DNA from: Candidatus Thorarchaeota archaeon
GTDB lineage: Archaea > Asgardarchaeota > Heimdallarchaeia > Hodarchaeales > Hodarchaeaceae
Direction: 5' to 3'
Assembly (NCBI GenBank): GCA_048882505.1
Contig: JBHLRO010000003.1
Span: 90,001 to 122,000 of the forward strand
DNA length: 32,000 nt
Shown: one piece after another, positions 8,353 to 27,056 of the stretch
Position numbering within the stretch: position 1 is the first letter of the stretch
How the letters are laid out: each line of letters begins with the position of its first letter
Notes under the pieces: model-generated
What the model saw: only the letters and a program-made list of their open reading frames with translations
Told to the model about the DNA's origin: nothing
Database searches by the model: none
Program-made: the position numbers and the translations under genes

Positions 8353-8373
8353 TTTTTTCCTTTTTCTTTTTTT
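8353..8373 (+). terminator. T-rich tract terminating the thiolase-HAD/ECH unit
   Basis: TTTTTTCCTTTTTCTTTTTTT directly after the stop, between convergent genes. Confidence 0.65.
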
Positions 8374-10885
8374 ATGTCCGAGTGCTCTGGATAAACGATC
8401 TTGTTTTTTTCATTTCTTTCTCCCACTTTTTTCTTTCAGAACGTAGCTGAAAAATGTCTACATCTTTATAGATCAAATCTTCCTTTTTAGGGGGAATGTT
8501 ATATTCAGTTCTCTCCTTTTCAGGAGTATAGATGAAAGAATTACCAAACTCGGCAATATTGGCGAAGAAACAGTAGGCATAAATCGATCTTCGGGCATCG
8601 AAATGCGCCGCTTTGAAATCAGCGGTAACTGGTGTAAAAGCTGGATTAAAAATAATGTCTACTGGTGGATCGAAGTTTTTCAACTCTGCTCTGAAATCCA
8701 GATCAAGAAAATCGCGACAGATTAAGATTGCCATTCTTCCGTACTCTGTGTTGCATACAATGGTGGTTCTGGGAAATTTATCAACGGATATGCCCTCCTT
8801 GATCTTTTTTCCAGCAATATAAATGATTGCGGGGTGATGCTTCTCTTGCTCCCACAGCACACCTTTTGGGCCAAACGCAATACTTACATTTCGATTTGTC
8901 GTTTGATCATGAAAAGACCCAGGAATTATGTACATTCCATACATCTGAGCAGATTTTGAGATATCCTCTCTTAACAACTTGCAATTAAGGTCGATGATAA
9001 GCTCGGGGAATAGCAAAATGTTGATCCCCTCCGAGACAGCCCTCTGTATTTTATTTTTGATGGAATTTCTGATGAGTTCAACTTTTTCTTTCCGTATATT
9101 AAATAAACCAGGAATTTTTGAATAAAAGAGTTCGCTTACAATATCATCAGTTTCTGAGATTCCTATTTGCGCTATTCCGATTCGACATTTTTGTTTCTGA
9201 GTTCTAGCATGAGTGTGATATAGATCCTTATAGATCAGTCTGAATCTTGTTACCGTTTTAAACTTATTTTCTAAGACATCATTTATGGCGTTCGAAATGT
9301 ATTCACGGAGGTTTAAAAGCTCAATCCTTTCCTGTAATGTCGAATTACTGATAAATAGTTCTTTCCATTCATCTAATTGACCTATAAGTTCTTCTTGCTG
9401 AATTAATAATTTCGAATGTATCAGTCCCAATCCTTTATCTTCAGCGATCGCAAGCGCTTTTTCAAGTAATTTTTTCGATAGATCAGATTTGCCTTCAATT
9501 AATGCAAGTCTTGCTTGAAGGGAATATAAGCTGACCAAGGTTGTAATTGATCTTTGTTTGTTTGCTACATTGGAAATCTGATCTAATAATTGTTGTATAT
9601 CTAATATAATTGCCTCTTCTCCGGAATATTTCAGTTCATCTAATAATAATTCACAGAGATTTACTTTGATCATAAACTCAATTTCATAGTCAAATCTGTC
9701 TTCCTTGATTTCTTGCAGAATCTGTTGAGCTTGAAATTTATAGACTGCTCTTTTTTTCTCTTTTAAAACGAGTGCCTGAGCTAACTTTTTTACAACATCT
9801 AACCATGGCCACCTCTCTACGTATTCATCTAGCTTCTGCTGTGACACGTCAATTTTTTGTTCATTGTGGAGTTCCACATATGCCATGATTAAGTATAAAT
9901 GAAGGATGGCCAGCTCAAAATCCAAGAAAGTATTTCTGGATTTGCATATTGATTCGTGAACATCGATTGCTTTGTTGAAATATTCAATGGCCTTCTCTAG
10001 TTCACCTTGGTGATAATGAACAGCGCCCAAATACCGAAAGGTAACACAATAACCATGGGGAACATCTCGAGATGAAGATGGAGAATAATCCTTTAGAGCT
10101 TTATCATAATACTGAATTCCTTTCCTGAAATTTCCTTTTCCTTGATGGACTGAACCCATAAGAGTTGAAACTTCAGAAAGACCTATTTCATGTTCCAAAT
10201 CATCAAAGATCTCAAGACTTTCTTCAGCACATCGTAATGCTGTGTCTAATTCCCCTTTATAATAGTGGATGTAACCTAGGGAATAATTGGACCAAGCGAT
10301 ATACTTGGTATTTCCTATAGCTTTACTGATTTCCAATTGTCTCTGTATATAGTCTTGCGCTTCGTCTAAACTTCCTCTGGCCCTCAATATCCAGCCTATA
10401 TTATTTAATTGATAATAAATACCTTGTTTATGATTGATTTCCCTAAACAAGTTCAAACTTCTCTTGAAAAAATCTAAGGCCTTATCGAATTCACCAATAG
10501 AAATTTGAAACCCCCCCTTAAATGCCAATAATTCTCCTTCCCATTCCCGTATTTTTTGCCTGTCAGAATCATTCATCCTCGATAAAATAATGTCACACAA
10601 TTCGACTTCTTCTGTAATCTCAGAAAATCTCCTTAATTTGTACAAGGTTTGTATTTTCGCATTTCGTGCTCCAAATTCTTGAACAAGATTAAGTTGTTCC
10701 AGGCGGGAATTGAGAATTTTTTCTAAAATCGATAATGCACCATCGTAATCACGTCGTGTCCGAAATATGAGGCTCTTAAGTACTTCTCCTTCAATTCGAT
10801 CCTTCTTCTCGAGTGTTTCAATTCTTGAGAGAGCATCATCTAGTTTCTCATCTTGGATTAATTTCTGAATTTCTTCCAAGCTCAT
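8372..10885 (-). CDS. TPR-repeat protein with C-terminal carbon-nitrogen hydrolase (nitrilase-fold) domain (protein A, ~837 aa)
   Basis: Tandem ~40-aa TPRs (GEFDKALDFFKRSL...LNNIG; GSLDEAQDY...YSLG; GELDTAL...; GNFRKG...; GELEKAIEYF). C-terminal IGIAQIG, LLFPEL (Glu), EQEKHHP (Lys), AILICRD (Cys), NIAEFGNS. Minus-strand SD AGGTGA at 10896-10901 supports ATG 10885 over the ORF-track start at 10966. Confidence 0.85.
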   Translation of the reverse strand: MSLEEIQKLIQDEKLDDALSRIETLEKKDRIEGEVLKSLIFRTRRDYDGALSILEKILNSRLEQLNLVQEFGARNAKIQTLYKLRRFSEITEEVELCDIILSRMNDSDRQKIREWEGELLAFKGGFQISIGEFDKALDFFKRSLNLFREINHKQGIYYQLNNIGWILRARGSLDEAQDYIQRQLEISKAIGNTKYIAWSNYSLGYIHYYKGELDTALRCAEESLEIFDDLEHEIGLSEVSTLMGSVHQGKGNFRKGIQYYDKALKDYSPSSSRDVPHGYCVTFRYLGAVHYHQGELEKAIEYFNKAIDVHESICKSRNTFLDFELAILHLYLIMAYVELHNEQKIDVSQQKLDEYVERWPWLDVVKKLAQALVLKEKKRAVYKFQAQQILQEIKEDRFDYEIEFMIKVNLCELLLDELKYSGEEAIILDIQQLLDQISNVANKQRSITTLVSLYSLQARLALIEGKSDLSKKLLEKALAIAEDKGLGLIHSKLLIQQEELIGQLDEWKELFISNSTLQERIELLNLREYISNAINDVLENKFKTVTRFRLIYKDLYHTHARTQKQKCRIGIAQIGISETDDIVSELFYSKIPGLFNIRKEKVELIRNSIKNKIQRAVSEGINILLFPELIIDLNCKLLREDISKSAQMYGMYIIPGSFHDQTTNRNVSIAFGPKGVLWEQEKHHPAIIYIAGKKIKEGISVDKFPRTTIVCNTEYGRMAILICRDFLDLDFRAELKNFDPPVDIIFNPAFTPVTADFKAAHFDARRSIYAYCFFANIAEFGNSFIYTPEKERTEYNIPPKKEDLIYKDVDIFQLRSERKKWEKEMKKTRSFIQSTRT

Positions 10886-11095
10886 AAGGATCGCCTCACC
10901 TAAAAAGAATCGACCGTAAATAAACAATATTCCTATAGTAACCAAAAACATCTCAACCACTGCCAATTGTGGAATCCCAGCAGAATTTTCAAACCAGTAG
11001 AGTGAGAAAGATCCAACAGATCCTAACTTCCATTCCCTCTATTCATATCGTAAAAACAGCTATTTAACTGACGGGGTGAATTTCGAAGAGAGATC

Positions 11096-12355
11096 GTGGT
11101 TACCATGTCCAAAAAGTCTCTTTTCGTTTTTTTCCTCGTAGTTAGTCTTGCTGGTTTGAATATATTTCAGTTTTACTATTTCACAACCTTGCTTCCAGTA
11201 ACTCCGCAAGAGGACGTACCACTCGATGTTGTAACAATTCTAAATAATAATAAGGCCGATTACATCGGGAAAACGGTTACTCTAGATGGATATTATGTCG
11301 AAGGAGGATCCAATATATCCCTGCTCATTACTGAGCCAGTTATATTCGAAAATAATTCACTAACACCAAACAATTATCTGATAATAGGTGGTAATGTGCC
11401 ATCATCACTACAAACACAGATAGGAGCGCAAGTACACCTTAAAGGGCGAATTACTTGGGCCAATGAAACCGAAGGCTTGTTGGAAATTACCTATGGATCT
11501 CACTCACTTATTAGGGAAGGGGCATTGAATCACTTACAAAACAAGTTCATCGACACTTCCAAACTTTATGATATTACCCAGTTTCCCTTCAACCAACGGA
11601 AATACGCTGTATTGATTAGTGGTGGGATTAAACCAGAAAAGGCTTACTCCAGGTATTGGAATGATATCACTGCTATGTATTTCATTTTGACATGGTTATA
11701 TGGCTATGATCCGCAGAACATCTATATCGTTTATAAGGACGGAATTCCCGAAAATGGCTTCGCTCCCGTTCATGGCCCCGCGACTCATACTTACCTGCAG
11801 ACTGTGTTTACTGAACTTGAGAATAAGATGACCCGATCAGATAATTTATTCATTTACACCACTAATCACGGCGGGAGTTCTGGTCTCAGTTTGTGGGGAC
11901 CGATGGATCCCTACGCTCTTACTCCCAATGAGCTTAATAATATGCTTATGAATATTCAGTATAATCAAGAAATCATAGTTATGGAACAGTGCAAATCAGG
12001 TGTCTTTATTCCCACTTTAAGTAAATCAGGCAGAGTTATCCTAACTGCTGCAAGTCCAATACAATCTTCATACGGCTGCGACACAGAAGGGCCCTGGGAT
12101 GAATTTGTTTATCATTTCATGAGCGCTGTTGCCGAACTAAAAATAAATGGAGACCCCGGCATTGTAAATTCGGATTTAAATAACGATGGCAAAGTCTCAA
12201 TGTATGAAGCCTTCATGTATGCTAGTGAGCAAGACTCCCGTCTCGAAAATCCATATTATGATGATGACGGTGACGGTAGCGGATTACCAGCGATTCTATT
12301 GAGTTTATTAGATCCGGCTGATGAGGGGGCGTTAGGTCAAAACACCTTTTTGTAA
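11096..12355 (+). CDS. Membrane-anchored/secreted C13-family (legumain/caspase-fold, clan CD) cysteine peptidase
   Basis: N-terminal hydrophobic segment (SLFVFFLVVSLAGL). KYAVLISGG...RYWND, His motif FIYTTNHGG, Cys motif IVMEQCKSG, VILTAAS. Ca-loop-like DLNNDGKVS. Start GTG 11096 or ATG 11105. Confidence 0.8.
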   Translation: MVTMSKKSLFVFFLVVSLAGLNIFQFYYFTTLLPVTPQEDVPLDVVTILNNNKADYIGKTVTLDGYYVEGGSNISLLITEPVIFENNSLTPNNYLIIGGNVPSSLQTQIGAQVHLKGRITWANETEGLLEITYGSHSLIREGALNHLQNKFIDTSKLYDITQFPFNQRKYAVLISGGIKPEKAYSRYWNDITAMYFILTWLYGYDPQNIYIVYKDGIPENGFAPVHGPATHTYLQTVFTELENKMTRSDNLFIYTTNHGGSSGLSLWGPMDPYALTPNELNNMLMNIQYNQEIIVMEQCKSGVFIPTLSKSGRVILTAASPIQSSYGCDTEGPWDEFVYHFMSAVAELKINGDPGIVNSDLNNDGKVSMYEAFMYASEQDSRLENPYYDDDGDGSGLPAILLSLLDPADEGALGQNTFL

Positions 12356-12452
12356 CCTATAACTAAATAGTTACAATGTGGGCAATCGGAATTCCAAAAC
12401 CTGACGACCAATTAGAGAATCGCGAATTGACTCTTGGTAAATACTCACTGTG

Positions 12453-12493
12453 GGATTCAAGGCCAAGGGATTTCTCTATGTTGGCCCGAATCC
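12453..12493. other. Stem-loop between convergent genes (possible bidirectional terminator or RNA stability element)
   Basis: GGATTC/GAATCC and GGCCAA/TTGGCC nested complementary pairs. Confidence 0.45.
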
Positions 12494-12527
12494 GTTTGAC
12501 GAGCTAGAGCCAACTCATTATAGGCCC

Positions 12528-13439
12528 CTAGTCTGAACGTTCTGCGGCTTTCTGCAAGTACCGAGGATGGTAATTTAAGAGATTGTAGAGAAATTTGTCA
12601 GAAGATCTTTCCCGTGAGCCTGTGGGGATTATAATATCTTCCAGTTTCTTTACTCGAAATTTTTTCTTTACAATATTGAAGTAATGCTGTTCCTGAAGAA
12701 GAAGCAAGTTACGGATTGATATCATAACCTCATCTACTATTTCCCGCGCTGTTTCATAGAATTCAGCTTTTGAATCATCCCATCCTCCAGTGCGAAAATA
12801 ATCATCGAAGTATAGGGGCTTTCCAAAAGAAACGGACACAAACGCTTTGTATTTGGGAACCAGTCTACCGATTCCTAAAGCTTCAGCCGCCCCGTGGCAA
12901 TAAAACGGGATAACTGGGACTTTTCCATTTAATTTAAGGATAACACGACCTACACCGGTCCGTCCTTCTTTCAATAGATTGAAGTAATCATGAAGTGGAT
13001 GACTAAAGATTCTCTTTCCCTGGGGAGCGATCAAAACCGCCAATCCTTTCCTTAATAGGCGTACTGCATAATCTAGTGCGACATTGGAATTTTCACGATA
13101 TACGGGAAATGCCCCGAGCACTCGGACTAATCCAAAAAACGTGTTCCCATCCATAGCCTTTCCTGATGCCATGAAACCCAGCCTGGTCCGGTTTCCATAC
13201 GGTTTAATGATTGCACTTCCCAGCAATAACGCATCAAGATGTGATCGGTGATTTCCACAAAATATCACTGGATTACCCTCGGGAAGTTCAGAGGTATTTT
13301 CTAATCCACTCACATCGAACTGAAAGAAGTTATGGCAAAATTTCGGAACGACCAGAGCGGCAAACCTAAATAAACTCCTCTGGATGAAGTTCCATTCGAG
13401 GTGGATTAAATTTGCAGGTAGTTCCATATAGGAAGTCAC
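12528..13439 (-). CDS. Lysophospholipid acyltransferase (PlsC/LPLAT family)
   Basis: Block I NHRSHLD (HxxxxD), block II GAFPVYR, block III APQGKR (canonical PEGxR), block IV VPVIP. Start GTG 13439 or ATG 13427. Confidence 0.88.
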   Translation of the reverse strand: MTSYMELPANLIHLEWNFIQRSLFRFAALVVPKFCHNFFQFDVSGLENTSELPEGNPVIFCGNHRSHLDALLLGSAIIKPYGNRTRLGFMASGKAMDGNTFFGLVRVLGAFPVYRENSNVALDYAVRLLRKGLAVLIAPQGKRIFSHPLHDYFNLLKEGRTGVGRVILKLNGKVPVIPFYCHGAAEALGIGRLVPKYKAFVSVSFGKPLYFDDYFRTGGWDDSKAEFYETAREIVDEVMISIRNLLLLQEQHYFNIVKKKFRVKKLEDIIIPTGSRERSSDKFLYNLLNYHPRYLQKAAERSD

Positions 13440-13542
13440 CAGATCTGTACTTCATACGCTATTAAAGATTTTTTAGGATATTGACTCGGAATACGAATCG
13501 GATAAGCCATTTGTATTACCCAGTCTTTCGAGTTTTAACTTA

Positions 13543-14751
13543 TTAGCTATAAATGATTAATTCCTCTAAGGTTCGAGGATATTCCGTGACAATTTCTATT
13601 CCATCTGTTGTTATTACAATGGTGTCCGAGTGCCTAAAACCTCCTATAGAACGGTCATAAATTCCTGGTTCAACCGAAAAAACCATTCCAGGTTTTAGAA
13701 GTTCATCCATTCCGAGATCGAGAAAAGGGCGCTCATGACCTTCTAATCCGAGAGCATGGCCCGTGTGATGTTGAACTAAGTTTAACACACCAGAATCTTT
13801 AAAAACAGCACGTGTGGCCTTATCTACTTTGGATAAAGGTATCCCAGGCCCAAGTGTTTCAAAAGCAGCCTTCTGGGCGCGAACCATTATATCAAAGTAA
13901 TCTTTCTGCTTTTTATTTGGCTCTCCCATAAACATGGTTCTTTCTAATTCCGAAAGATATCCTGCGACGTTTCCGCCTGCTCCCGTAACCAATGTATCAC
14001 CTTTATGAAATACGGCATTGCGGGTCATTGCGTGAGGGATTGCTGAATAAGGTCCTATCTGTCCTCTGTAGCCTGCACCGCAGGGACGCGCGCCATACCC
14101 AATCGGCGAATAATCTGAACCAAGAGTTTCCCGCATACGTTTCGATGCTTCGTGAGAGGCGCGAAACGACACATCAATTTCATTTGCTCCGACCACAGTA
14201 TAATCTTGTAACAATCGATGAGCCAAATTGCCCCATTTTGCACTTTCACGAATGGAGGCCAATTCATCTTCGTCTTTAATAATCCGCATGTCAGTAATAA
14301 CGTCAGAGACGATTTTCACCGGAAATTTCAAAACATCACTGAAAGATGGACCTATATATCCCCATTTACCTGGAGCTCCTGCGCCCTCTGCCCCAATGTT
14401 ACCAGAAATCCTCAATTTGTCCTTCAGAAAAGATGCAAATTTGGTCATTGGGTGTACTGTGTCTGGATATTCAAAATAGCTTTCAACTTCCTTAACAGAA
14501 GGAACCTCCTCCTGGACGTGCTGTTTTTCGAGTTCTGGTACGAAAAAATTAATGGAAGGACTACTCGTTACATTGGTACATATCAAAAAGAAAGGACGTT
14601 CGGTAGGTATTAAGACAAAGCCAGTCAAATAATAGATTGAGATGGGATTAAGGACTATAAAGTGCCGTAGTTCGTGTTCTTTGATGATAATCTTAAAAAA
14701 CTGATCCCGACGTTCACTTAATCGCGATTGAGGAATTTTTATGGGTATCAT
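13543..14751 (-). CDS. M24 (pita-bread fold) Xaa-Pro peptidase/creatinase-like protein with degenerate metal site
   Basis: LNPISIYYLTGF, DMRIIKDEDEL, SAIPH, GYLSELERT, HHTGHALG, VFSVEPGIY, GGFRHSDTIV. Confidence 0.88.
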   Translation of the reverse strand: MIPIKIPQSRLSERRDQFFKIIIKEHELRHFIVLNPISIYYLTGFVLIPTERPFFLICTNVTSSPSINFFVPELEKQHVQEEVPSVKEVESYFEYPDTVHPMTKFASFLKDKLRISGNIGAEGAGAPGKWGYIGPSFSDVLKFPVKIVSDVITDMRIIKDEDELASIRESAKWGNLAHRLLQDYTVVGANEIDVSFRASHEASKRMRETLGSDYSPIGYGARPCGAGYRGQIGPYSAIPHAMTRNAVFHKGDTLVTGAGGNVAGYLSELERTMFMGEPNKKQKDYFDIMVRAQKAAFETLGPGIPLSKVDKATRAVFKDSGVLNLVQHHTGHALGLEGHERPFLDLGMDELLKPGMVFSVEPGIYDRSIGGFRHSDTIVITTDGIEIVTEYPRTLEELIIYS

Positions 14752-14792
14752 GGCTAACTATATCCCTTTTGCTCAAAATATGACAGCTGTCG

Positions 14793-15308
14793 TTATAGGT
14801 AAGGTAGAACTACGTTCAAGCTTTGGATCAGGTTTTCTGGGGTCGCGATTGGCCGCACTTTGACCGTTAAAAAGACTAGAAACCCGAGGAATAATGTTAT
14901 TGTCCAACAAATAACCGTTGCAATCATCAATGGTCTGAAATTGATCAAAGTTCGCAAGCGTATTTCAAAACGTTTTACAGCGAAAGAAATGGTGATGAAA
15001 AGACTTAGTGCAATTGTAATTGATCCCATGGTCCAATGGGCAAAGGGAATCCACCGTCCAAGAGGATCGGCCAAAACTCGGGGGGCCGCTCTTAGTGCAT
15101 TGGGCAGCATCACTAGCAACCAAACTGTCAAGTGTGCAATTGTCGCCCCATAGACCATCCAATGATGCAGCGTGATGTTCAAGCGTCGTGCACCAAAATA
15201 CCACCCAACGAATAAGCCACAGAAAAGGACAACCTCAACAATGAGCACCAATAAGGCGAGAGTCGGAATATTATAACCGTTGAGAACTAGATCTTGCACG
15301 AGCGTCAT
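14793..15308 (-). CDS. DUF420-like multi-pass membrane protein
   Basis: Four hydrophobic segments with His residues at helix starts (LHHWMV, IAHLT, FAHWTMG). Family call by resemblance only. Confidence 0.55.
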   Translation of the reverse strand: MTLVQDLVLNGYNIPTLALLVLIVEVVLFCGLFVGWYFGARRLNITLHHWMVYGATIAHLTVWLLVMLPNALRAAPRVLADPLGRWIPFAHWTMGSITIALSLFITISFAVKRFEIRLRTLINFRPLMIATVICWTITLFLGFLVFLTVKVRPIATPENLIQSLNVVLPYL

Positions 15309-15318
15309 AATTAACCCA

Positions 15319-16053
15319 TTATTTCTCAGTAACTATCTTAGAAATACTTCCTCTTGTTGTAAATTGACAAGATTCAATGGTTGCTCTATCCCCTTTATGA
15401 CTTGTAATTATGGCTGATCCAATCATTCCCCATGGACAGAATCTGACATTTGATTTTTGATAGGCTTCTGATTTATGTATGTTAGCAAAATAACATTTGT
15501 TTGCGGCGATTCGAACGGAAGTCCCTTTTATTCTCACACTGGTATATTGTACAAATCTTTTTTCTCTGATATAGTCCAGGTAGGCATTCAATTTTTCTTC
15601 TAACGTTTTTTCCTCCCCAAGAAAGACATCTGGTAGGTAGGAGGACAAGATATCTGCTATTCGACTAAAAACATACGTCTTGATCGCAGTTTCTCCTAAG
15701 ATGTCGATAAAGACGCTTTCATATCCGAAGATCGCAGCTCTTAGCTGCCAAATCTCCTCTAATGAGAACATTACGCTCTTTTTCAGTTCACGTGCGCGAG
15801 AAATCTTTAGTTTAAAGTCATCCAACCATGATCTTAGGTCAGATACCAATCGTTCGGGGTCAGGGGCGGCCTTATTGAAAATGCCCGGCAAAAATTCTCG
15901 AACATAATAGACCATTTTTGGCAATACATAATCCTCTACAACATTTGGGCCAATTAATTCCATACCTACCGCTTCATAGGCGTCTAAAATACCGCCATAT
16001 AAGAAAACTGCATCCAATCTCCCCTTTTGACCCTCTTTAATAGCATGTGACAT
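15319..16053 (-). CDS. V4R/MetOD-like domain protein with duplicated N-terminal helical unit
   Basis: C-terminal beta-rich part with three spaced Cys (KCYFANIH, FCPWG, SCQF). Internal repeat residues 21-59 vs 106-144. Confidence 0.6.
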   Translation of the reverse strand: MSHAIKEGQKGRLDAVFLYGGILDAYEAVGMELIGPNVVEDYVLPKMVYYVREFLPGIFNKAAPDPERLVSDLRSWLDDFKLKISRARELKKSVMFSLEEIWQLRAAIFGYESVFIDILGETAIKTYVFSRIADILSSYLPDVFLGEEKTLEEKLNAYLDYIREKRFVQYTSVRIKGTSVRIAANKCYFANIHKSEAYQKSNVRFCPWGMIGSAIITSHKGDRATIESCQFTTRGSISKIVTEK

Positions 16054-16136
16054 TTATCGATCCCATAAAAAGAGGTTATACCTTCTTACCCCTTCTAAAT
16101 GTTAGATGGTTTAAGTTTTTGTTAGGAATTGAAGAT

Positions 16137-17168: not shown

Positions 17169-17413
17169 TTTTTTCAATCCTAATAATGATAGAACCTCTT
17201 CCTAGTTATTTCCACCAATTTTAAACTAGATATCCAACTCATATTTTACATATAGGCATGTATATTCCCTCCTTCCTCATTTTTATGGCTATGCGTTTTG
17301 ATTGTATCCCAGTTATATTACCTAATAGCCCCCGTATATTAGTCTAAAGTTCTTTTAATCCCCGTAATGGTAAACTAGCCTTATTTTCGTACCTTTGTAT
17401 CTTGTCGTTCAGC

Positions 17414-18877: not shown

Positions 18878-18931
18878 TGTTCCTAACCTCTAAAATGATA
18901 CACCTAAAACGATCCACGGTTTAAGAGCATT

Positions 18932-20059
18932 CTATTCTCCTGGAAAGTTACCTAATGCAGTTTCGTTTGCTGCACGAGCAACAAACGGGATAATCGTACC
19001 CAATGCTCCAAAACGTTGATCTTGGGTTTGTTTATTAACGAAACGTATATAGATCTGAGCAATAATCACAGTAAGACGAAACAGACCGAGTGTATGGTAA
19101 AATTGGACATTGCTTACAGCTATCCCGCTTTTCGCTTCATACCTTTCGATTAACTCTTGACGAGATGGCCACCCGATACTTTCGTGGGTCGGCATCGTTG
19201 ATAAGACCTGAAGGTAAGGAGGATCAGTGGGATCAGTCCAATAGGTAAGTAGCGCACCTAGATCGGACAAAGGGTCCCCAAGAGTGCACATATCCCAATC
19301 AAAAATTGCAACTATCTGTCCAGAGCTATCAACCATGACATTGTCAAGTTTAAAATCATTGTGGACAAGGGAAAAATGCTCAGTCTTCGGGATGTTCTTC
19401 CTTAACCAATTATAAACTTGATCAACATCTTCATTGTCTTCGGTTTTCGCCCTATGCCATCTTCGATACCATCCTTCCACTTGGCGCTTGATAAAGCCCT
19501 CAGGCCGCCCTAACTCCGATAATCCCAAACGTTCGTAGTCTACGTTATGGAATTCGACCAAACGATCAACTAATTGATTGCTGATCTCGGTAGCAAGTTT
19601 TGGTGAAGGAGTTAATCCTTTGGGAAACGATCTACGGATAACAAAGCCCTTTTTCCGCTCCATTATAAAAAACGGGGCACCTATGATTGACAGATCTTCA
19701 CAAAACATGTAGGCCTTAGGAGCATAAGGAAATGCCTTATGTAGCACAGAAAGCACTGTATATTCCCGATTCATATCGTGCGCCGATTTCGCTACTGGGC
19801 CGAGGGGAGGACGACGTAGAACATATTCCTTACCTTCAAAGTCAAGGAGATATGTCAAATTTGCTGCCCCACCCCAAAACTGTCTTACCGTTAAAGATGA
19901 TTTCGTACCAGGGAGTTTATCAATGAGGTAACGAGCAAGAGATTTTGTATCAAAGGTTTCGTCATCACGGACAGAAATAGTATCATTTTCCGTTCGCTCA
20001 TCGGGAATCACGTTAAATATACCACCGATTTGGCTGAACGAGGTCGGGCTAGCAATCAA
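18932..20059 (-). CDS. APH-family phosphotransferase (ACAD10/11 kinase domain / LvaA-like)
   Basis: GGAANLTY, YVLRRPP, AHDMNREY, FFIME, VHNDFKLDN, FDWD, GDPLSDLG. TTG start overlaps the ACAD stop (TTGA). Confidence 0.92.
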   Translation of the reverse strand: MIASPTSFSQIGGIFNVIPDERTENDTISVRDDETFDTKSLARYLIDKLPGTKSSLTVRQFWGGAANLTYLLDFEGKEYVLRRPPLGPVAKSAHDMNREYTVLSVLHKAFPYAPKAYMFCEDLSIIGAPFFIMERKKGFVIRRSFPKGLTPSPKLATEISNQLVDRLVEFHNVDYERLGLSELGRPEGFIKRQVEGWYRRWHRAKTEDNEDVDQVYNWLRKNIPKTEHFSLVHNDFKLDNVMVDSSGQIVAIFDWDMCTLGDPLSDLGALLTYWTDPTDPPYLQVLSTMPTHESIGWPSRQELIERYEAKSGIAVSNVQFYHTLGLFRLTVIIAQIYIRFVNKQTQDQRFGALGTIIPFVARAANETALGNFPGE

Positions 20060-21240
20060 GATTCGTATTGGCTTAAAATTCGCTTTGCAACCGAAAATTT
20101 GTGCACCTCGTCGGGGCCATCATAAATACGAGCACCCCTTTCGAGGGCATACCAAAGCCCAAGGGGAGTCTGATTGGTCATCCCCAGTGCCCCATGGACT
20201 TGAATTGCCCGATCCAAGACCCTTTGAAGAGTATTGGCCACAAAGAACTTGATCAGCGAAATATCAATACGGGCTGCGTAAACGCCTTCAGCATCAATCT
20301 TATGGGCCGTATCCAGAACCAATAAACGAGCAGCGTTTATTTCTGCCCTGCTTTCTGCAATCCAATTACGGATAGTCTGCTGGATAGCCAAAGTTCGTCC
20401 TGGCGCAACTTCCCTGTCAACTGCTCTACGACACATCAGGTCAAAAGCCCTTTCACATATGCCAAGCCATCGCATACAATGATGGATACGTCCTGGGCCC
20501 AAGCGTTGTTGGGCTATTACGAAACCCATTCCTTCATCACCCAGTCGATATTTTTGTGGAACCCTACAATTATCGTATTTTATCTCTCCGTGACTGGCCC
20601 AAGCTTCTCCAACATGACCCATTACGGGAATGTTTCTAACCAAGTTGAATCCTGGCGTATCTGTTGGAACAATGATTTGGCTTGCCTTAAAATGACGTTT
20701 TTCCTGTTCAGGGTTTGTAACCGCCATTACAATTGCAAAAGCTGCCCCGTCGGCTGATGAAGTAAACCATTTGTGACCATTGATGACATAATCTTCCCCG
20801 TCTTTTTCAGCAGTTGTCTCGATCCAGGTAGGATTTGACCCTGGGCAATCTGGTTCTACAATTGAAAAACAGCTTCTAATATTTCCGCTTAATAATGGCA
20901 TTAGGTACTTCTCTTTCTGCTCATCAGTACCGTATTCAATAAGGATTTCCATATTGCCTGCATCAGGCGCCTGACAGTTGAATAAATAATGGCCCCAGGG
21001 TGATCTTCCTAATTCCTCGCTTAAAATCCCGTGTTCAAGTAATGTCAGACCCAATCCGCCATACTTTTTTGGGATTTGAGGTAGCCATAAACCCAGGCCT
21101 TTAACCTCTTTTCTCAGGTTGTTAAGAGTCGGAAGCATTTCCCGAAACGATTTTCCTGCAAATTGGGCTTCTAACGGTATAGCTTTCTTTGTTATAAATT
21201 CACCTACTTCCTCCAAAATTGATTGGAATTTCTGTGACAT
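20056..21240 (-). CDS. Acyl-CoA dehydrogenase, ACAD10/11 (FadE2/LvaC-like) subfamily
   Basis: FNCQAPDAGNME, RSCFS..EP, INGHKWFTS, QQRLGPGRIHHCMR, QVHGALG, RIYDGPDEVH. ATG 21240 preferred over 21279. Confidence 0.93.
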   Translation of the reverse strand: MSQKFQSILEEVGEFITKKAIPLEAQFAGKSFREMLPTLNNLRKEVKGLGLWLPQIPKKYGGLGLTLLEHGILSEELGRSPWGHYLFNCQAPDAGNMEILIEYGTDEQKEKYLMPLLSGNIRSCFSIVEPDCPGSNPTWIETTAEKDGEDYVINGHKWFTSSADGAAFAIVMAVTNPEQEKRHFKASQIIVPTDTPGFNLVRNIPVMGHVGEAWASHGEIKYDNCRVPQKYRLGDEGMGFVIAQQRLGPGRIHHCMRWLGICERAFDLMCRRAVDREVAPGRTLAIQQTIRNWIAESRAEINAARLLVLDTAHKIDAEGVYAARIDISLIKFFVANTLQRVLDRAIQVHGALGMTNQTPLGLWYALERGARIYDGPDEVHKFSVAKRILSQYES

Positions 21241-21588
21241 CGTTAGATTAAGTATACTCGTGATCATGTTCAGAATCACCTGGATTATAGGAGAAGAAGG
21301 AGGATTATGAACCTTATGCTAGTTCCGTTAGATCAGAATGGCCATTTATTTCACCTAGCAAAACGATAGCACCCTTATTTATCAACTCAGATTTCCTGCT
21401 GAACCTGTTTTATGACAATAGGCGAAGGGGATTTCAATTTCTTAAAATTTAATTGGAGGATAATAGTAGCATGGAACCAGGCAGATAGCTTCATAATTTC
21501 GCCCATTACTGGCTTTGGTCGGGTTTTCCTAAAATGCCCGATCGGTCTGGATAAAAAGCGAATCATTATTGTAGGATCAGGTGGTTAC

Positions 21589-21933
21589 ATGTCGAAAATT
21601 GACGCGTTCAATCGATACCGAGACAAAATGAACGAGATCATACTGGAAAAATCAAATCTTGAGATCAAGCGGTTCTTCAATCTAGATACTCGTACTTATT
21701 ATGATGGTGCTCTCTCAGCCAAGACAAAGGAACTTCTTGGCCTTGTTGCGTCCATGGTTCTGCGTTGCAATGACTGTATTACGTACCATATACTCCAATG
21801 CCGACAGCTTGGTACAACAGAAGCCGAATTTTATGAAGCATTCACAGTTGCTCTTGTTGTGGGCGGATCCATCGTTATTCCCCATCTGAGAAAGGCGGTG
21901 GAGATGTTGGAAGAGGCACTAGAGACATCCTAA
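21589..21933 (+). CDS. Carboxymuconolactone decarboxylase/AhpD-family protein
   Basis: GALSAKTKELLGLVASMVLRCNDCITYH (CxxC...H). SD-like GGTGG before ATG 21589. The upstream extension to 21412 is probably spurious. Confidence 0.9.
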   Translation: MSKIDAFNRYRDKMNEIILEKSNLEIKRFFNLDTRTYYDGALSAKTKELLGLVASMVLRCNDCITYHILQCRQLGTTEAEFYEAFTVALVVGGSIVIPHLRKAVEMLEEALETS

Positions 21934-21959
21934 GGCGAACACTCGTCCATTCCCAATTT

Positions 21960-22787
21960 TTACAGTTTTATCGTCTCTGAACTTCCGGTTTCTGCTATCG
22001 ACTTATTTCCTTCAACCCTGAAAAACAGTCTATTACGTGTACCAAATGACACCTTTTTCTTTATATAATTGTAATCATTGGTTTTAAGGCGATCCTCCAC
22101 CTCAATAAAGATCTTAGTATTTAAAAGTTGAAAATAAATGTCAGGAAAGGCGGTGTACGATGATCCCTCTTCCAGAAGTTTTATCAAGAATTCGAATCCT
22201 TTTTTTCCGCCCACCAATTCTGTTTTTTGACCTCTAAACCCTTTTATACTTTGTAGTTTGTTCTGATAGTACTGTTCATCATACTGAGGGGGATTACAGA
22301 CTACAGCATCGAATTGTGAGATTGATTTGAACACATTGATCAAGATTTGATTTGGGTTTTCCACATACCGAAGGGAAATTCGGTTTTGCAAGGAATTGCA
22401 GACAATGTTCTCTCTCGCTGATAAATATGCGGTCTTACTACATTCTGTCCCCACCACCTTACATCCCATAGCGGCAAACATTAATGCCAATATCGCTGAT
22501 GCTCCTGTTCCTACTTCCAACACTTTTTTGGCATGGTATTGAAGAATCCATTCCACAAATGCCCAACGATTGCAGACTGTGGGGACCAAAAACTCTTTTG
22601 GAAGAGTGAATTCTAGATTCAAAAAGTCCCTGAATATTGCCTGATTGTATAATAACAAAGTTTCTGGATCTCCCAGGTCAATATGGCCACTCTTACTTAA
22701 TGTTTTTTTCTTTAATTCTGGCAAAATGTTTAGGAAATCCTTGATTTGAAGTCCACATCGTTTTTGCGGAATTGGATAGGAGGCCAT
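21960..22787 (-). CDS. RlmF/METTL16-family RNA adenine-N6 methyltransferase
   Basis: IDLGDP...LVPTVCNRWAFVEWI, SAM motif LEVGTGASAI, CNPPQY, ELVGG..G. ATG 22787 preferred over 22850. Confidence 0.8.
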   Translation of the reverse strand: MASYPIPQKRCGLQIKDFLNILPELKKKTLSKSGHIDLGDPETLLLYNQAIFRDFLNLEFTLPKEFLVPTVCNRWAFVEWILQYHAKKVLEVGTGASAILALMFAAMGCKVVGTECSKTAYLSARENIVCNSLQNRISLRYVENPNQILINVFKSISQFDAVVCNPPQYDEQYYQNKLQSIKGFRGQKTELVGGKKGFEFLIKLLEEGSSYTAFPDIYFQLLNTKIFIEVEDRLKTNDYNYIKKKVSFGTRNRLFFRVEGNKSIAETGSSETIKL

Positions 22788-23213
22788 GGCATTCACTTCA
22801 ATAAGCGGATTTGTCAATATCAGCGGTAGAGAATATGGTTTATGCTGCAAATCTTTTATAATTTTGGAGAAGTTGAGAGCAAATAAGTATTCATTGTGGG
22901 GGAGATTCCATAACCTATGGAATCAAACGCCTAGGGGTTGCCATTACGGGTTAAAATCTTGTTTAATCACGCCCCTTCAAAATAATCATTGAGTCACATA
23001 AAGGTTTTCATTGACTCATCCAAGATTGTTATGGGATTACTCTCAGAATTATTAATTAGGCAATGTTTGGTGAATAAACTCGCTGTTTTCGATCTTATCA
23101 AGTAAAAAAGATATTTATATTTATTGGCAGTAGTCTCCCAACAATAAAAAACAGGGAATTAGCTAAATTCGAAAAAATCATATCAACTCTAATGTATTTG
23201 GTGTTTATCCTTC

Positions 23214-23225
23214 TCGATATATCGA
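23214..23225. promoter_or_regulatory. Perfect 12-bp palindrome TCGATATATCGA upstream of protein B
   Basis: Self-complementary, about 40 nt before the start. Function unproven. Confidence 0.3.
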
Positions 23226-23267
23226 CCATTACAAAGAAGTAAGGTATAGCAGGTATGAAGAACCTTG

Positions 23268-26200
23268 ATGGAGAAAGCAAGGGGTGAGGAGAAGAACCTC
23301 AATTGGATTAAAGCCGCCATTCTTTATGGCCAAGCGAAAGAAGAGTATTTGAAGGATGAAGAGGTGGAATTAGCAGCTAACGCCTGTTACAGACAAGGAT
23401 ATACTTATACCAGATGTGCGGAAACGGCAGGAGGGGCCAATGAATTTGAAGAACATTTTCAGTCTTCTATTGAATCATATAATGAAGCTGCAGATCTTTT
23501 TTCTTGGATAGATGCTTTGCCAGAAAAATGGGCATGCTTGGCAGAATCTGCGTTTTCTGCTGCTTTTATTAGTAAATCAATTCCTGAAATGCTAGAAGCA
23601 TTTGAGAATGCCTACGAACTTTTCTTAGAGGCAAATAAAGGGTATTCAATAAGGAACGATACCAAACACTATATTCGGACTTATGTTCGTGCTGCAATGA
23701 CGCTCTCAAATCTTATCCCTTACAGAAACAACCCAGATGAAATTAATCGTGTACGTCAAGAAGGTAGAGAGATAATCGACAAAATTTGGAACATTGCAAT
23801 AGAACAGAGAGATGCCTTTTCACTTTCACAATCTCTCTTTGCTGACCATCTTTTGAAGTATTATGAGTGGTTTATAGGATTATCAAAAAAGGACCATTAT
23901 TGGAAAAGAAGCGAGGAAGAAACTATCAACAAACTTGAAGAAGCGATTCCAATCATTGAGGCGAATGATAATCCTACGTACCTTGAAATGAGCTATCACG
24001 TCGCAGGTTTGACTAACAATACATATGGATTTCAGTTTGTAGAAAACGATAAAGAACAGAACAAATTTGCGGAACTAGGGTTCAGTTATTTTAGGAGGGC
24101 CGAATCACTGAATAAAAAAACCAAGAATAAATTGCTTAATACCTTAACAACAGCCTGGACCGATTGGTGGGCATTATTCTGGGGTAGAGTCGAGTATCTA
24201 CAAAATCGAATTCAGGACGATCTCGCAGCTTTAGAAAACAATGCAAAAATAATGTATCAGTCCTTTACTAACTTCAATTTTTATGCAAATTTCTTACCTA
24301 CGTTTGCTTATGCGAATTTTGCTCAGAGGAGCTTTTTTTCTAGTTCTCAAAGACGTCAGTTTGCGGAAATGGCAAATAAATATGCCTTAGAATGTTTACG
24401 GATAATTCCCTCTTCCCCAATATCTTTATGGCCCCTACAAATGCAAACGTGGGCATATTCCCAGTTGACTATATTGGCTTCAGATGCACCAGAGCGGCAA
24501 ATGAATGCCCGAATTATGCTTCAGTACGCGGAACGTGGGGAAAATTTCGCGAAAAACTATGAAGGAGGATTTGCCAGAGCCTCGGCTTTCTCTTCTCTTT
24601 ATCGGTGTTACAAAACTTTGGCAGAAATTTCTAAAGATGAGGAATATCGAATTGAATACCTCACTAAGGCAATAGATGCAATGGAGAAATATGCGGATTA
24701 CGCTCTTGAATCACGGGTGGGAGTTATTAATGCACAATTTCGAATAGGACTTTTATATGGGGAACTGTATGAAATAACAGGTCAATCAAACCTTTTAAAG
24801 AAGTTAAGGGACCTATTTCAAAGCATATTAAATGACTGTAACGAGAGGGGATATTTTTCTTACTCAGCTGCCGCTTCAGAGAACTTAGCTCATATAGAGG
24901 ATAAACTGGGTAATTTCAATCTTTCTACGGATTATTATGTTCGAGCCAGAGAAAAACATACCCAATCTTTAGAAAAAATTGAATATAGACCATTAAGGGA
25001 AAAAATCGTCGAGAAAATCAACTATACTAATGCATGGGCATTAATTGAGAGTGCTAAAACGCATCATAAAAGAGAAGATCAACAAAAAGCGGAAGCGGAA
25101 TATTTAACGGCCTCTAAAATTCTCATAAATCTGCCTGACCATTCCTATGAAGCACCATACTTCGAAGCTCTAGCTTTGCAAGAAAAAGCCGAATATCTAA
25201 GTTCGAAAGAAAACTATCAGAATTCTCAATCAGAGTTTCTAAAAGGTCAAATGGCTTTTACAAATGCGTTGAATGCTTTTAATCAAGCTATAAAGGATAT
25301 TGACAACAACAAAGAGCGAGATCGCATTAACAAGATGATTTCCCTTACCAATCTTGGGATTAGTTACTGTTCTGCCCGTTCCTCTATTGATAATGCCCAA
25401 ATTCTCTGGAAAAAAGGAGATCTTATCCCAGCTGCAGAGCAAATGAAATCAGCGGCTTCCCTGTTCAAGGAAACGCCAATAAGCTCTGAAACTAGGAGAG
25501 AACAACGGAAATTTAATGCCTTTAATTATTTATGTCAGGCATGGGAGAATATGATAACTGCAGAGAAGTACGCGGATTCTGAAAAGTACCAAAGTGCCTC
25601 AGGATTATTTAAAAGCGCTAACGACCTGCTACTAGACAGTAGGATAAAATTCTTGGCTTCAGGCAATGCATTTTTTTGTCAAAGTTTAGCAAATGGATGT
25701 AAATTTGACGAATCAAATGATCTCAAGATTAAAGAAGAATTGTTCATTGAAATCAAGTCCCTCCTAAGAAACGCCGCCATACTATATCAAAAAGGAGATT
25801 TCATTACCGCTTCAGGTTGGGTTTTAGCTACGTCCACTTACTTCGATGCCACCTGGCACCTAATTAAGGCAGATAAAGAAATCGAATTGGATAAGAAACA
25901 AACTCTATTGAGGATAGGATCGAGCTACCTAAAGTCTGCAGCTGGACTTTTCAGAAAACACGGTTTCGTTGAAAAAGAGAATGAAGTTCAGACTCGTATC
26001 TCTATGGTTGAAAAAGAAGAGCAAATCTTGGTTACCGCGATTAACACTATCAAAGAACCTTCAATCTCTAGAAGCACAAAAAGCATGAGTTCTTCAACCA
26101 ATCTTGGAGTTTCAAGCTTGCCGTCAGGGATGAGCGAAATCCGAAAGTTTACAGAAGAAGCGAGAAGGGTTTCAATCCTAAGAGAATACCAATTAATCTA

Positions 26201-27056
26201 TGAAGACAATCTTCCAGATTTCCCAAGGAGTCAGAAACGGCATTTTAAAGTAGGCATTGCCCAAATTGGGATTTCAAATAGTGGAGATTTCCTGAATGAA
26301 TTCTATGACAGAAAAAATAACGGATTAATTAGACTAAAACAAAATAAAATTGAATTCATGAGATCTAAAGTAAATGATATGATTACAAGGGCACACGCGA
26401 ACGAAGTCGATATTCTCATCTTCCCTGAACTCTCTATTGATCTAAATTATGAAATTCTCTATAATGAAATTTTGAATCTTTCGAAATCGTACGGAATGTA
26501 CATAATTCCTGGATCGTATCACGATGAAAGTACAAAATATAATCAGAGTGTAGTTATTGGTCCTGATGGTATCCTATGGAGACAAAATAAGCACATACCT
26601 GCCGTAATTCACCTAGATGGAAGAAAAGTGACCGAGGAGATCGATGTTGGTGGCCCAGTTCATAAGACATTGATCTTTAACACGGAGTACGGCCGTATTG
26701 CAATAGCAATCTGCAGAGATTTCTTAGATATGGATTTGAGGGTAGAACTCAAGAACTCGAAACCCCCTGTAGATCTAATAATTAATCCGGCATTCACTCC
26801 AGTAACGGAGGATTTCAAAGCTGCTCATTTTGATGCTCGAAGATCAATTTATGCATACTGTTTCTTTGCCAATGTTGCAGAGTTTGGAAATTCTCTTATA
26901 TTTACCCCTGAAAAGGAACGAAAAGAAAGAATCATGCCACCTAAAAAAGAGGGAATTATTATCAAAGAAGTAGACTTATTTACACTTCGTTCAGAAAGAA
27001 AAAGATGGGAAAATGAACGAAGAAAGACAAAATCATTTATTCAAAGTACACGGTAA
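23268..27056 (+). CDS. Giant alpha-helical (TPR/SNAP-like) repeat protein with C-terminal carbon-nitrogen hydrolase domain (protein B, ~1262 aa)
   Basis: About 950 aa of Ala/Tyr/Glu-rich helical repeats, a Ser-rich linker, then VGIAQIG, LIFPEL (Glu), RQNKHIP (Lys), AIAICRD (Cys), NVAEFGNS. C-terminal ~290 aa closely similar to protein A. ATG 23268 (TTG 23265 alternative). Confidence 0.85.
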   Translation: MEKARGEEKNLNWIKAAILYGQAKEEYLKDEEVELAANACYRQGYTYTRCAETAGGANEFEEHFQSSIESYNEAADLFSWIDALPEKWACLAESAFSAAFISKSIPEMLEAFENAYELFLEANKGYSIRNDTKHYIRTYVRAAMTLSNLIPYRNNPDEINRVRQEGREIIDKIWNIAIEQRDAFSLSQSLFADHLLKYYEWFIGLSKKDHYWKRSEEETINKLEEAIPIIEANDNPTYLEMSYHVAGLTNNTYGFQFVENDKEQNKFAELGFSYFRRAESLNKKTKNKLLNTLTTAWTDWWALFWGRVEYLQNRIQDDLAALENNAKIMYQSFTNFNFYANFLPTFAYANFAQRSFFSSSQRRQFAEMANKYALECLRIIPSSPISLWPLQMQTWAYSQLTILASDAPERQMNARIMLQYAERGENFAKNYEGGFARASAFSSLYRCYKTLAEISKDEEYRIEYLTKAIDAMEKYADYALESRVGVINAQFRIGLLYGELYEITGQSNLLKKLRDLFQSILNDCNERGYFSYSAAASENLAHIEDKLGNFNLSTDYYVRAREKHTQSLEKIEYRPLREKIVEKINYTNAWALIESAKTHHKREDQQKAEAEYLTASKILINLPDHSYEAPYFEALALQEKAEYLSSKENYQNSQSEFLKGQMAFTNALNAFNQAIKDIDNNKERDRINKMISLTNLGISYCSARSSIDNAQILWKKGDLIPAAEQMKSAASLFKETPISSETRREQRKFNAFNYLCQAWENMITAEKYADSEKYQSASGLFKSANDLLLDSRIKFLASGNAFFCQSLANGCKFDESNDLKIKEELFIEIKSLLRNAAILYQKGDFITASGWVLATSTYFDATWHLIKADKEIELDKKQTLLRIGSSYLKSAAGLFRKHGFVEKENEVQTRISMVEKEEQILVTAINTIKEPSISRSTKSMSSSTNLGVSSLPSGMSEIRKFTEEARRVSILREYQLIYEDNLPDFPRSQKRHFKVGIAQIGISNSGDFLNEFYDRKNNGLIRLKQNKIEFMRSKVNDMITRAHANEVDILIFPELSIDLNYEILYNEILNLSKSYGMYIIPGSYHDESTKYNQSVVIGPDGILWRQNKHIPAVIHLDGRKVTEEIDVGGPVHKTLIFNTEYGRIAIAICRDFLDMDLRVELKNSKPPVDLIINPAFTPVTEDFKAAHFDARRSIYAYCFFANVAEFGNSLIFTPEKERKERIMPPKKEGIIIKEVDLFTLRSERKRWENERRKTKSFIQSTR

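Follow-up and report, generated by a model that had tools for sequence, protein, structure and literature searches.

Two large open reading frames (ORFs) in a 32-kb stretch of a Candidatus Thorarchaeota genome (contig JBHLRO010000003.1, positions 90,001 to 122,000; hereafter the window) raise the question of how two proteins with such different N-termini came to end in the same enzyme. Protein A and protein B each carry a nitrilase-fold module, which we call the cassette, behind a long helical-repeat region (Table 1). An initial annotation, made from the letters alone, proposed that the two belong to a modular family in which variable repeat scaffolds share a common, swappable nitrilase output. 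Both ORFs are present as first read, and the proposal itself was borne out by partner domains of at least seven classes, by trees in which architectures interleave, and by outputs exchanged on the B scaffold. Together, these comparisons strongly support the view that the cassette is a tight, almost purely Asgard module that has repeatedly been exchanged among scaffolds.

We compared A and B by BLASTP and found a single region of similarity, the cassette: positions 575-863 of the A frame match 975-1263 of the B frame over 289 residues with 57% identity, zero gaps and an E value of 2e-112, and no further significant match lies outside it. The similarity begins as abruptly as had been described, at the same point in both proteins (FRLIYKD in A, YQLIYED in B). 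In DNA, the two cassettes are 63% identical overall and 43% identical at third positions; 82 of the 166 identical residues are specified by different codons, and runs of identity reach at most 20 nt. From these figures, the two cassettes are the product of an old divergence under purifying selection, and not of a recent copy or gene conversion.

An exhaustive phmmer search with the cassette against 1.84 billion representative sequences returned 49 clusters below an E value of 1e-30, followed by a gap; the next full-length proteins lie at about 1e-20 to 1e-13. Identity to the query among full-length members is 41-75%. When longer proteins were searched through a word index, at least 801 cassette proteins of at least 516 residues were recovered (E 1e-20 or better). 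Clustering of the remaining parts of these proteins, together with Pfam scans, indicates that the cassette has been joined to partners of at least seven classes, unrelated to one another: the B solenoid (about 1275, 875 or 1390 residues long), the A-type, MalT-like tetratricopeptide repeats (TPRs), a Ras/Roc GTPase with a protein kinase, RING with a protein kinase, FIST with FIST_C, beta-helix/NosD repeats (1600-1800 residues) and an alpha/beta-hydrolase (about 570 residues). Stand-alone cassettes occur as well.

In a set of 209 proteins whose cassette is complete, all classes but one place the end of the cassette 0-2 residues from the C-terminus. That sole exception is a form of about 1093 residues (14 clusters: P0127 and 13 related clusters) of the STAND (signal transduction ATPases with numerous domains) type. 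In P0127, the whole cassette, including its terminal FIQSTR motif, sits between the Walker A (GEAGIGKT, residues 37-44) and Walker B (LLIFIDD, around residue 464) motifs of an AAA_16 NTPase, and TPRs and an alpha/beta-hydrolase follow the cassette-bearing domain. Clusters of the P0127 type come from metagenomic Asgard contigs; one is labelled Zixibacteria.

The history of these fusions was approached with a quick maximum-likelihood tree of 109 cassettes and 5 outgroups, with modest support on many branches. We found that the architectures interleave: the A type requires at least 7 changes, 2 of them forced by well-supported branches, and the 1275-residue B type at least 13, 4 of them so forced, while the kinase, FIST, beta-helix and STAND forms are nested among TPR forms. 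These counts are indicative, since the search was quick and branch support modest; as it stands, the cassette tree does not point to a single origin for each architecture.

The converse comparison, in which the scaffold is held constant, provides what we regard as the strongest support for a swappable module. With residues 1-970 of B as query, we recovered 125 full-length-type relatives at 33-67% identity, from organisms named Hod-, Hermod-, Thor- and Loki/Promethearchaeota. Clustering of 120 listed matches showed that 87 carry the nitrilase cassette, 12 a Cys-rich tail of about 90 residues, 6 a TIR domain and 6 a calcineurin-like metallophosphoesterase (Pfam identifies both, the latter as Metallophos), 2 a tail of about 147 residues and 1 an odd tail; another 6 are fragments with fewer than 40 residues beyond the scaffold. 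On a FastTree phylogeny of 102 near-full-length scaffolds, the output label changes 19 times against a minimum of 4: all six TIR forms stand apart, the Cys-rich tail accounts for 7 changes and the phosphoesterase for 4. Outputs are thus scattered over the scaffold tree, and we therefore conclude that modules were exchanged many times on one scaffold family.

Some of the alternative tails can be described a little further. The Cys-rich tail (about 60 residues in P0042, P0044-46 and P0060, proteins of about 1065 residues) is RING-like by language-model similarity (0.88), and the tail of about 147 residues (P0087 and P0116; about 1130 residues) is Roadblock/longin-like by the same measure (0.89-0.91); both assignments are leads alone. 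P0040 joins the B scaffold to a unique tail of 240 residues. None of these three tails has a Pfam match.

How different, then, are the two N-termini? The initial annotation gave A canonical TPRs, and Pfam agrees (TPR_12 at 1e-27, TPR_MalT at 7e-20); for B it claimed about 950 residues of SNAP/TPR-like helices, and the AlphaFold model indeed folds residues 1-930 into a solenoid of 38 helices, a single superhelix followed by a disordered linker of 40 residues. The best Foldseek matches of this scaffold model are the giant TPR superhelices of Ctr9, Ski3 and the IFT-A subunits, and the TPR glycosyltransferase SPINDLY is among its AlphaFold DB matches. The N-termini had been called unrelated. That BLAST detects no similarity between them stands, but the word itself was wrong: hhalign comparison of profiles from 24 B-type and 15 A-type N-termini gave 93% probability (E 2.6e-7) over 416 columns (B 66-598, A 88-534). 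Both are TPR-class solenoids, and B, about 370 residues longer, is essentially the longer version. TPR profiles often match one another, so the profile match is no proof of common descent of the whole scaffolds; A and B may be very distant relatives, or alike at the repeat level alone.

The genome holds four cassette copies, and B is the odd one among them. The other two, P0003 and P0004 (892 and 891 residues), are adjacent genes on contig C17 and full-length paralogues of A, with 23% identity throughout the N-terminus (E 7e-29). Diverged full-length paralogy, which had been named in advance as the outcome that would overturn the modular proposal, thus describes A and the two C17 genes; as the sole account of A and B it is very unlikely, given the module exchange described above. 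A motif search found no Walker A motif, and Pfam no NTPase match, in A, B, P0003 or P0004. The earlier statement that no NTPase partner is visible consequently holds for A and B, but not for the family, which includes the NTPase-linked STAND form. There is likewise no reverse transcriptase (RT) or CARF match in A, B or the C17 copies, and none among the neighbours inspected.

The cassette itself bears the marks of a nitrilase-superfamily enzyme. Pfam CN_hydrolase (PF00795) matches A with 24.4 bits and B with 40.7 bits, above a gathering cut-off of 23.2. The AlphaFold model of the B cassette, built with 29 relatives in the alignment, has a mean predicted local distance difference test score (pLDDT) of 90.4 and forms an alpha-beta-beta-alpha sandwich that resembles Nit2 (Foldseek E 1e-15; VIA Z 25.6, root-mean-square deviation 3.9 over 240 aligned residues); it also superposes on other enzymes of the nitrilase superfamily, among them carbamoylases and aliphatic amidases. 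A single-sequence search of solved structures gave weak matches to Nit2 and PH0642. The proposed triad of Glu (FPEL), Lys (KH.PA) and Cys (ICRDF) is kept in both proteins, and its residues (E86, K140 and C181 in cassette numbering) do not vary among 29 diverse family members, which between them represent every architecture. The same alignment reveals a further invariant Glu 15 residues after the catalytic Lys and shows that FIQSTR, the last six cassette residues, is 90-100% conserved; with the exception of the STAND-inserted form, all architectures keep this tail within 0-2 residues of the C-terminus. From sequence and model, we conclude that the cassette is an intact Cys-Glu-Lys amidohydrolase. 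A predicted cassette homodimer scored 0.42, against 0.38 for the control, which weighs neither for nor against a dimer.

Which nitrilases, then, are its closest kin? An immune-related branch of the superfamily has been set apart by Mestre et al. (PMC9226505). We found that PADLOC models of such proteins, RT_UG5-nitrilase, RTasNitrilase, the CARF-nitrilase CARF_m7 and, weakly, Drt1a, match the cassettes at 1e-9 to 1e-16: for A, CARF_nitrilase at 3e-14 and RT_UG5-nitrilase at 1e-10; for B, RT_UG5-nitrilase at 9e-16 and both CARF_nitrilase and RTasNitrilase at 2e-14. The genome also encodes three ordinary CN-hydrolases that stand alone (Pfam 1e-41 to 1e-17); used as controls, none of them matched a defence-type nitrilase model even at an E value of 0.1. 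The nearest proteins outside the family point the same way: 58 of 76 match the RTasNitrilase model and 42 of 76 the CARF-nitrilase model (E of 1e-5 or lower; best values 1e-55 and 1e-110, respectively). The closest of all are fusions of a TrmB-like domain, HEAT repeats and a nitrilase (P0177 and P0180, about 1130 residues) and of leucine-rich repeats and a nitrilase (P0210, 884 residues), whose nitrilase parts also match the RT-associated model. The family profile, unlike the single-sequence search, also reached the solved structure of the defence-associated reverse transcriptase DRT1 (9yfd), aligning with its entire nitrilase domain (residues 993-1224 of 1229) and sharing the motif N..E[FY]G.S...P.KE and the last helix; a Nit2 match that scores equally covers the first half alone. 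These data place the cassette, at the level of profiles, with the RT/CARF defence-nitrilase branch and apart from housekeeping nitrilases; clustering with a housekeeping enzyme, the other outcome named in advance as overturning the proposal, was thus not observed. Having neither an RT nor a CARF domain, it is therefore not a member of those systems.

The distribution of the family is patchy. Cassettes occur in 54 of 201 sampled Asgard genomes and only 5 of 27 families; a positive genome has 1-8 copies, and in the genus to which the window belongs the number ranges from 0 to 8. Species-representative genomes hold 278 cassette loci, of which the best 80 are almost all from Asgard metagenome-assembled genomes (MAGs). 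B-type genes also form head-to-tail arrays, one of at least five genes in a Hermodarchaeota MAG (L011, G192:C1:153500-172500) and one of three genes in a Promethearchaeota MAG (L012, G121:C33). Among array copies, pairwise identity climbs along the protein: it is 24-34% in the first quarter of the scaffold, 32-38% in the second, 46-54% in the third and 59-72% in the fourth, and reaches 64-78% in the cassette. The family-wide conservation profile slopes alike, low at the N-terminus and high at the C-terminus. A variable N-terminal recognition end, a conserved output end and genes that are gained, lost and amplified make up, as far as these sequences indicate, the pattern of conflict-system receptors. 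At one further locus (L008), an A-type TPR-nitrilase gene lies between direct repeats (5573-5925 and 8480-8834, 2907 nt apart), composed of about 300 nt at 78% identity and 46 nt at 98% identity and each encoding a 71-residue fragment that resembles the C-terminal domain of AMP-binding enzymes. We considered a mobile element here and rejected it in favour of a tandem-duplication unit, because another paralogue begins downstream.

These findings suggest how such proteins might work. We give an even chance to the idea that A and B are single-chain sensor-effector proteins, operating without an NTPase, with a role in conflict response. The TPR-type solenoid would be the input, its fast-evolving N-terminal repeats binding a protein or other ligand, and the C-terminal cassette would be the output, a defence-branch amidohydrolase that cuts a non-peptide C-N bond in some substrate. 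Enzymes of the nitrilase superfamily are active as oligomers, and TIR effectors are likewise switched on by induced proximity. Ligand binding could accordingly lead to self-association of the scaffolds, which would bring cassettes together as the oligomer needed for activity; the invariant FIQSTR tail might then act in trans, completing or gating a neighbouring active site, and the reaction product would harm the cell or the invader in an antiviral or abortive-infection-like response. In DRT1, the nitrilase is the effector and needs a tetramer, conserved C-terminal residues form an inter-protomer lid over the active site, and the substrate is unknown (PMC13275509). If FIQSTR acts at a neighbour's site in this manner, it would explain why the cassette is found almost universally at the extreme C-terminus. 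Extended further, this idea would make the family an Asgard repertoire of NTPase-less receptors, in which arrays of TPR solenoids have interchangeable outputs (nitrilase, TIR, metallophosphatase, RING-like) and the dominant one, the nitrilase, assembles on ligand binding through its tail and destroys an essential amide-bearing metabolite or protein group as a form of NLR (nucleotide-binding, leucine-rich repeat)-like innate immunity; we consider this extension possible but doubtful.

Several observations weigh against a role in conflict. The role of FIQSTR is drawn by analogy, and in the alignment the lid residues of DRT1 fall a little upstream of this tail. The Ras, protein kinase, RING and FIST partners look like parts of signalling proteins and not like toxins, and the RING-like and Roadblock-like tails, leads alone, are also signalling-like. 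At about 60-66% identity across Asgard lineages and architectures, the cassette is unusually well conserved, which would also fit a conserved cellular substrate. Eight neighbourhoods (six foreign, two own) contain no recognisable defence genes, with one weak HEPN match, and no conserved partner gene; neighbours in the contexts inspected are housekeeping genes (phenylalanyl-tRNA synthetase (PheRS), beta-oxidation, purine synthesis). Finally, scanning IMG/VR viral contigs for two cassette motifs yielded no relative, which is weak evidence because the scan was pattern-based.

The most serious alternative, although a less likely one in our estimate, is a part in cell regulation, with A and B as enzymes that modify other proteins: the TPR solenoid would recruit a client and the cassette would deamidate or de-acylate it, in signalling or turnover. 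Client recruitment by TPR arrays is familiar from OGT, PP5 (TPR and metallophosphatase) and CHIP (TPR and a RING-like U-box), and the nitrilase-superfamily enzymes Nta1 and Lnt act on protein N-termini. Such a function would sit well with the fusions of the cassette to Ras plus kinase, RING plus kinase and FIST, with the metallophosphatase on the B scaffold (and the RING-like and Roadblock/longin-like tails, as leads alone), with the high conservation of the cassette, with housekeeping neighbourhoods devoid of defence context, and with SPINDLY among the structural matches of the scaffold. It is harder to reconcile with nearest relatives that are RT- and CARF-linked defence nitrilases, unlike the housekeeping ones of the same genome, and with TIR among the alternative outputs; moreover, neither 0-8 copies per genome nor arrays with diverged N-terminal repeats would be expected of a regulator with a fixed client.

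Two simpler accounts fare worse. According to one, the proteins are metabolic amidases or nitrilases for nitrogen salvage or for nitrile or amide detoxification, with repeats that serve assembly or localisation alone. The fold does resemble omega-amidase, carbamoylases and aliphatic amidases, neighbouring genes are metabolic, and a metagenomic study interpreted Heimdallarchaeial 'nitrilases' as enzymes of nitrogen acquisition (PMC11193907). We nevertheless judge this very unlikely: the genome already has three ordinary CN-hydrolases, whereas the cassettes score weakly in Pfam and fall in another clade; there is no conserved operon partner; the cassette is swapped for TIR or a phosphoesterase on the same scaffold; and neither 600-970 residues of repeats nor tandem paralogue arrays are what one expects of a metabolic enzyme. 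The other account dispenses with module exchange altogether, taking A and B for old full-length paralogues whose repeats drifted while the enzyme was conserved. It can draw on the profile match between the two N-terminal families and on the full-length paralogy of A, P0003 and P0004, yet it would have to accommodate non-repeat partners (kinase, Ras, FIST, beta-helix, alpha/beta-hydrolase), insertion into a STAND P-loop domain, well-supported branches that force several changes in an interleaved cassette tree, and at least 19 output changes on the B scaffold, and TPR profiles frequently match without shared ancestry of whole proteins. We find it scarcely credible.

The sensor-effector reading can be set beside known systems. 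RT-associated nitrilases (DRT1/UG1 and UG5) and CARF_m7 belong to the same superfamily branch by PADLOC profile and likewise carry a C-terminal nitrilase effector fused to a larger input part; in DRT1, moreover, a conserved C-terminus is functionally important. Here, however, there is no RT, CARF, primase or CRISPR context and the input is a TPR solenoid, and whereas those systems are mostly bacterial, the cassette of A and B forms its own tight clade, Asgard-confined and with its own FIQSTR tail. We also entertained the alternation of nitrilase and metallophosphatase on the B scaffold as a mirror of the nitrilase/phosphohydrolase alternation in class 3 UG/Abi RTs, and rejected it: the RT-linked phosphohydrolase is COG3294 and does not have the calcineurin-like fold, so that the parallel is conceptual alone.

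DSR1 and DSR2 offer a second comparison, as single polypeptides with no P-loop that combine a long helical-repeat part with an enzymatic effector. The helical sensor of Dsr1 works without an NTPase, and such a sensor may be shared with STAND proteins (PMC13581612); just as the sensor type is shared with STAND there, the cassette also occurs in a STAND NTPase form here. The effector of DSR1 and DSR2 is the NADase SIR2, switched on when a phage protein binds, whereas that of A and B is a nitrilase (TIR or phosphoesterase on related scaffolds) in C-terminal position; the scaffolds of A and B are of TPR type, not homologous as far as compared, and sensing by them is a proposal. STAND/NLR-like proteins (Avs, bacterial NACHT) resemble the family in joining a repeat sensor to interchangeable effectors, CN-hydrolase included, and in their variable sensors, conserved signalling ends and tandem paralogue arrays; indeed, CN-hydrolase already figures among the effector domains catalogued for bacterial NACHT proteins, and among the toxins of ParA systems. 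Unlike A and B, they have an NTPase, and the AAA_16 P-loop is confined to the cassette form of about 1093 residues. With the ordinary members of the superfamily (Nit2 omega-amidase, N-carbamoyl amidohydrolases, aliphatic amidases) the cassette shares the alpha-beta-beta-alpha fold and Glu-Lys-Cys chemistry. It is, however, only 15-22% identical to them, is fused where they stand alone (about 270 residues), and carries two additions, a beta-hairpin at the N-terminus and the FIQSTR tail.

Table 1. Features of proteins A and B in the window, with the ordinary CN-hydrolases of the same genome (G000).
Feature	Position	Strand	Basis
Protein A, TPR-nitrilase fusion, 837 aa	8372..10885	-	ORF list, translation; Pfam TPR_12, TPR_MalT, CN_hydrolase
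A scaffold, MalT-like TPR array, then helical C-terminal part	9248..10885	-	Pfam; homologous end to end to N-termini of P0003 and P0004
A cassette, nitrilase-fold module including stop codon	8372..9247	-	BLASTP against B; PADLOC
A catalytic codons	8717..9004 (Glu 9002-9004, Lys 8840-8842, Cys 8717-8719)	-	Motif positions; invariant alignment columns
A C-terminal tail FIQSTR, then one more residue before the stop	8378..8395	-	Family alignment
Protein B, large TPR-type solenoid and nitrilase cassette, 1262 aa	23268..27056	+	ORF list; identical to database protein P0005
B scaffold, alpha-solenoid of 38 helices, residues 1-930 in the translated frame	23268..26054	+	AlphaFold model, pLDDT 87
B linker, predicted disordered	26055..26183	+	pLDDT below 50, residues 931-970
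B cassette, nitrilase-fold module including stop codon	26184..27056	+	BLASTP against A; AlphaFold; PADLOC
B catalytic codons	26427..26714 (Glu 26427-26429, Lys 26589-26591, Cys 26712-26714)	+	Motif positions; alignment
B candidate second Glu	26634-26636	+	Alignment
B C-terminal tail FIQSTR, final residues of the protein	27036..27053	+	Family alignment
Ordinary CN-hydrolases, about 277-316 aa	C21:30162-30902; C7:122993-123811; C2:415858-416523		Strong Pfam scores

The gene boundaries call for brief comment. The first codon of B is the ATG at 23268. For A, the frame is open over 8372-10966 on the minus strand, up to a TTG at 10966; the start is likely the ATG at 10885, which gives 837 residues and is placed there because the alignment with the paralogue P0003 begins at that point. 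The extension of 27 codons upstream to the TTG (10886-10966) would add a hydrophobic, membrane-like segment, and it is probably not translated, since the paralogues begin at the position of the ATG. Divergent from A lies a gene (11096-12355, plus strand) for a 419-residue protein with a legumain-type Peptidase_C13 domain, which was not seen beside other A-type genes in the contexts inspected. The remainder of the window, with a G+C content of about 40%, encodes archaeal housekeeping functions and lipid/CoA metabolism: PheRS alpha and beta, thiolase, a FadB-like protein, acyl-CoA dehydrogenase and purine synthesis.

Our searches of the literature on nitrilases and hydrolases with Asgard, TPR or TIR turned up no description of this architecture, which is no proof that none exists. 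Three things are new: a clade of cassettes that is confined to Asgard archaea and has a C-terminal tail peculiar to it, an unusual promiscuity of that cassette that includes insertion inside a P-loop domain, and a family of giant TPR scaffolds whose outputs are nitrilase, TIR and phosphoesterase. There is a practical side to this, in that the genes are annotated as 'predicted amidohydrolase' or 'nitrilase-related' and risk being counted as enzymes of nitrogen metabolism in metagenomics (PMC11193907). The defence nitrilases DRT1, UG5 and CARF-nitrilase have no known substrate (PMC13275509), and their chemistry could be approached independently through this compact, strongly conserved module of about 290 residues, which occurs in many protein settings. 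An NLR-like pattern without an NTPase in Asgard archaea also bears on the rise of modular immune and signalling proteins near the origin of eukaryotes. If the family is indeed a receptor repertoire, the closest archaeal relatives of eukaryotes would possess innate immunity of an NLR-like kind, and the chemistry of defence nitrilases would have a second setting that needs no RT.

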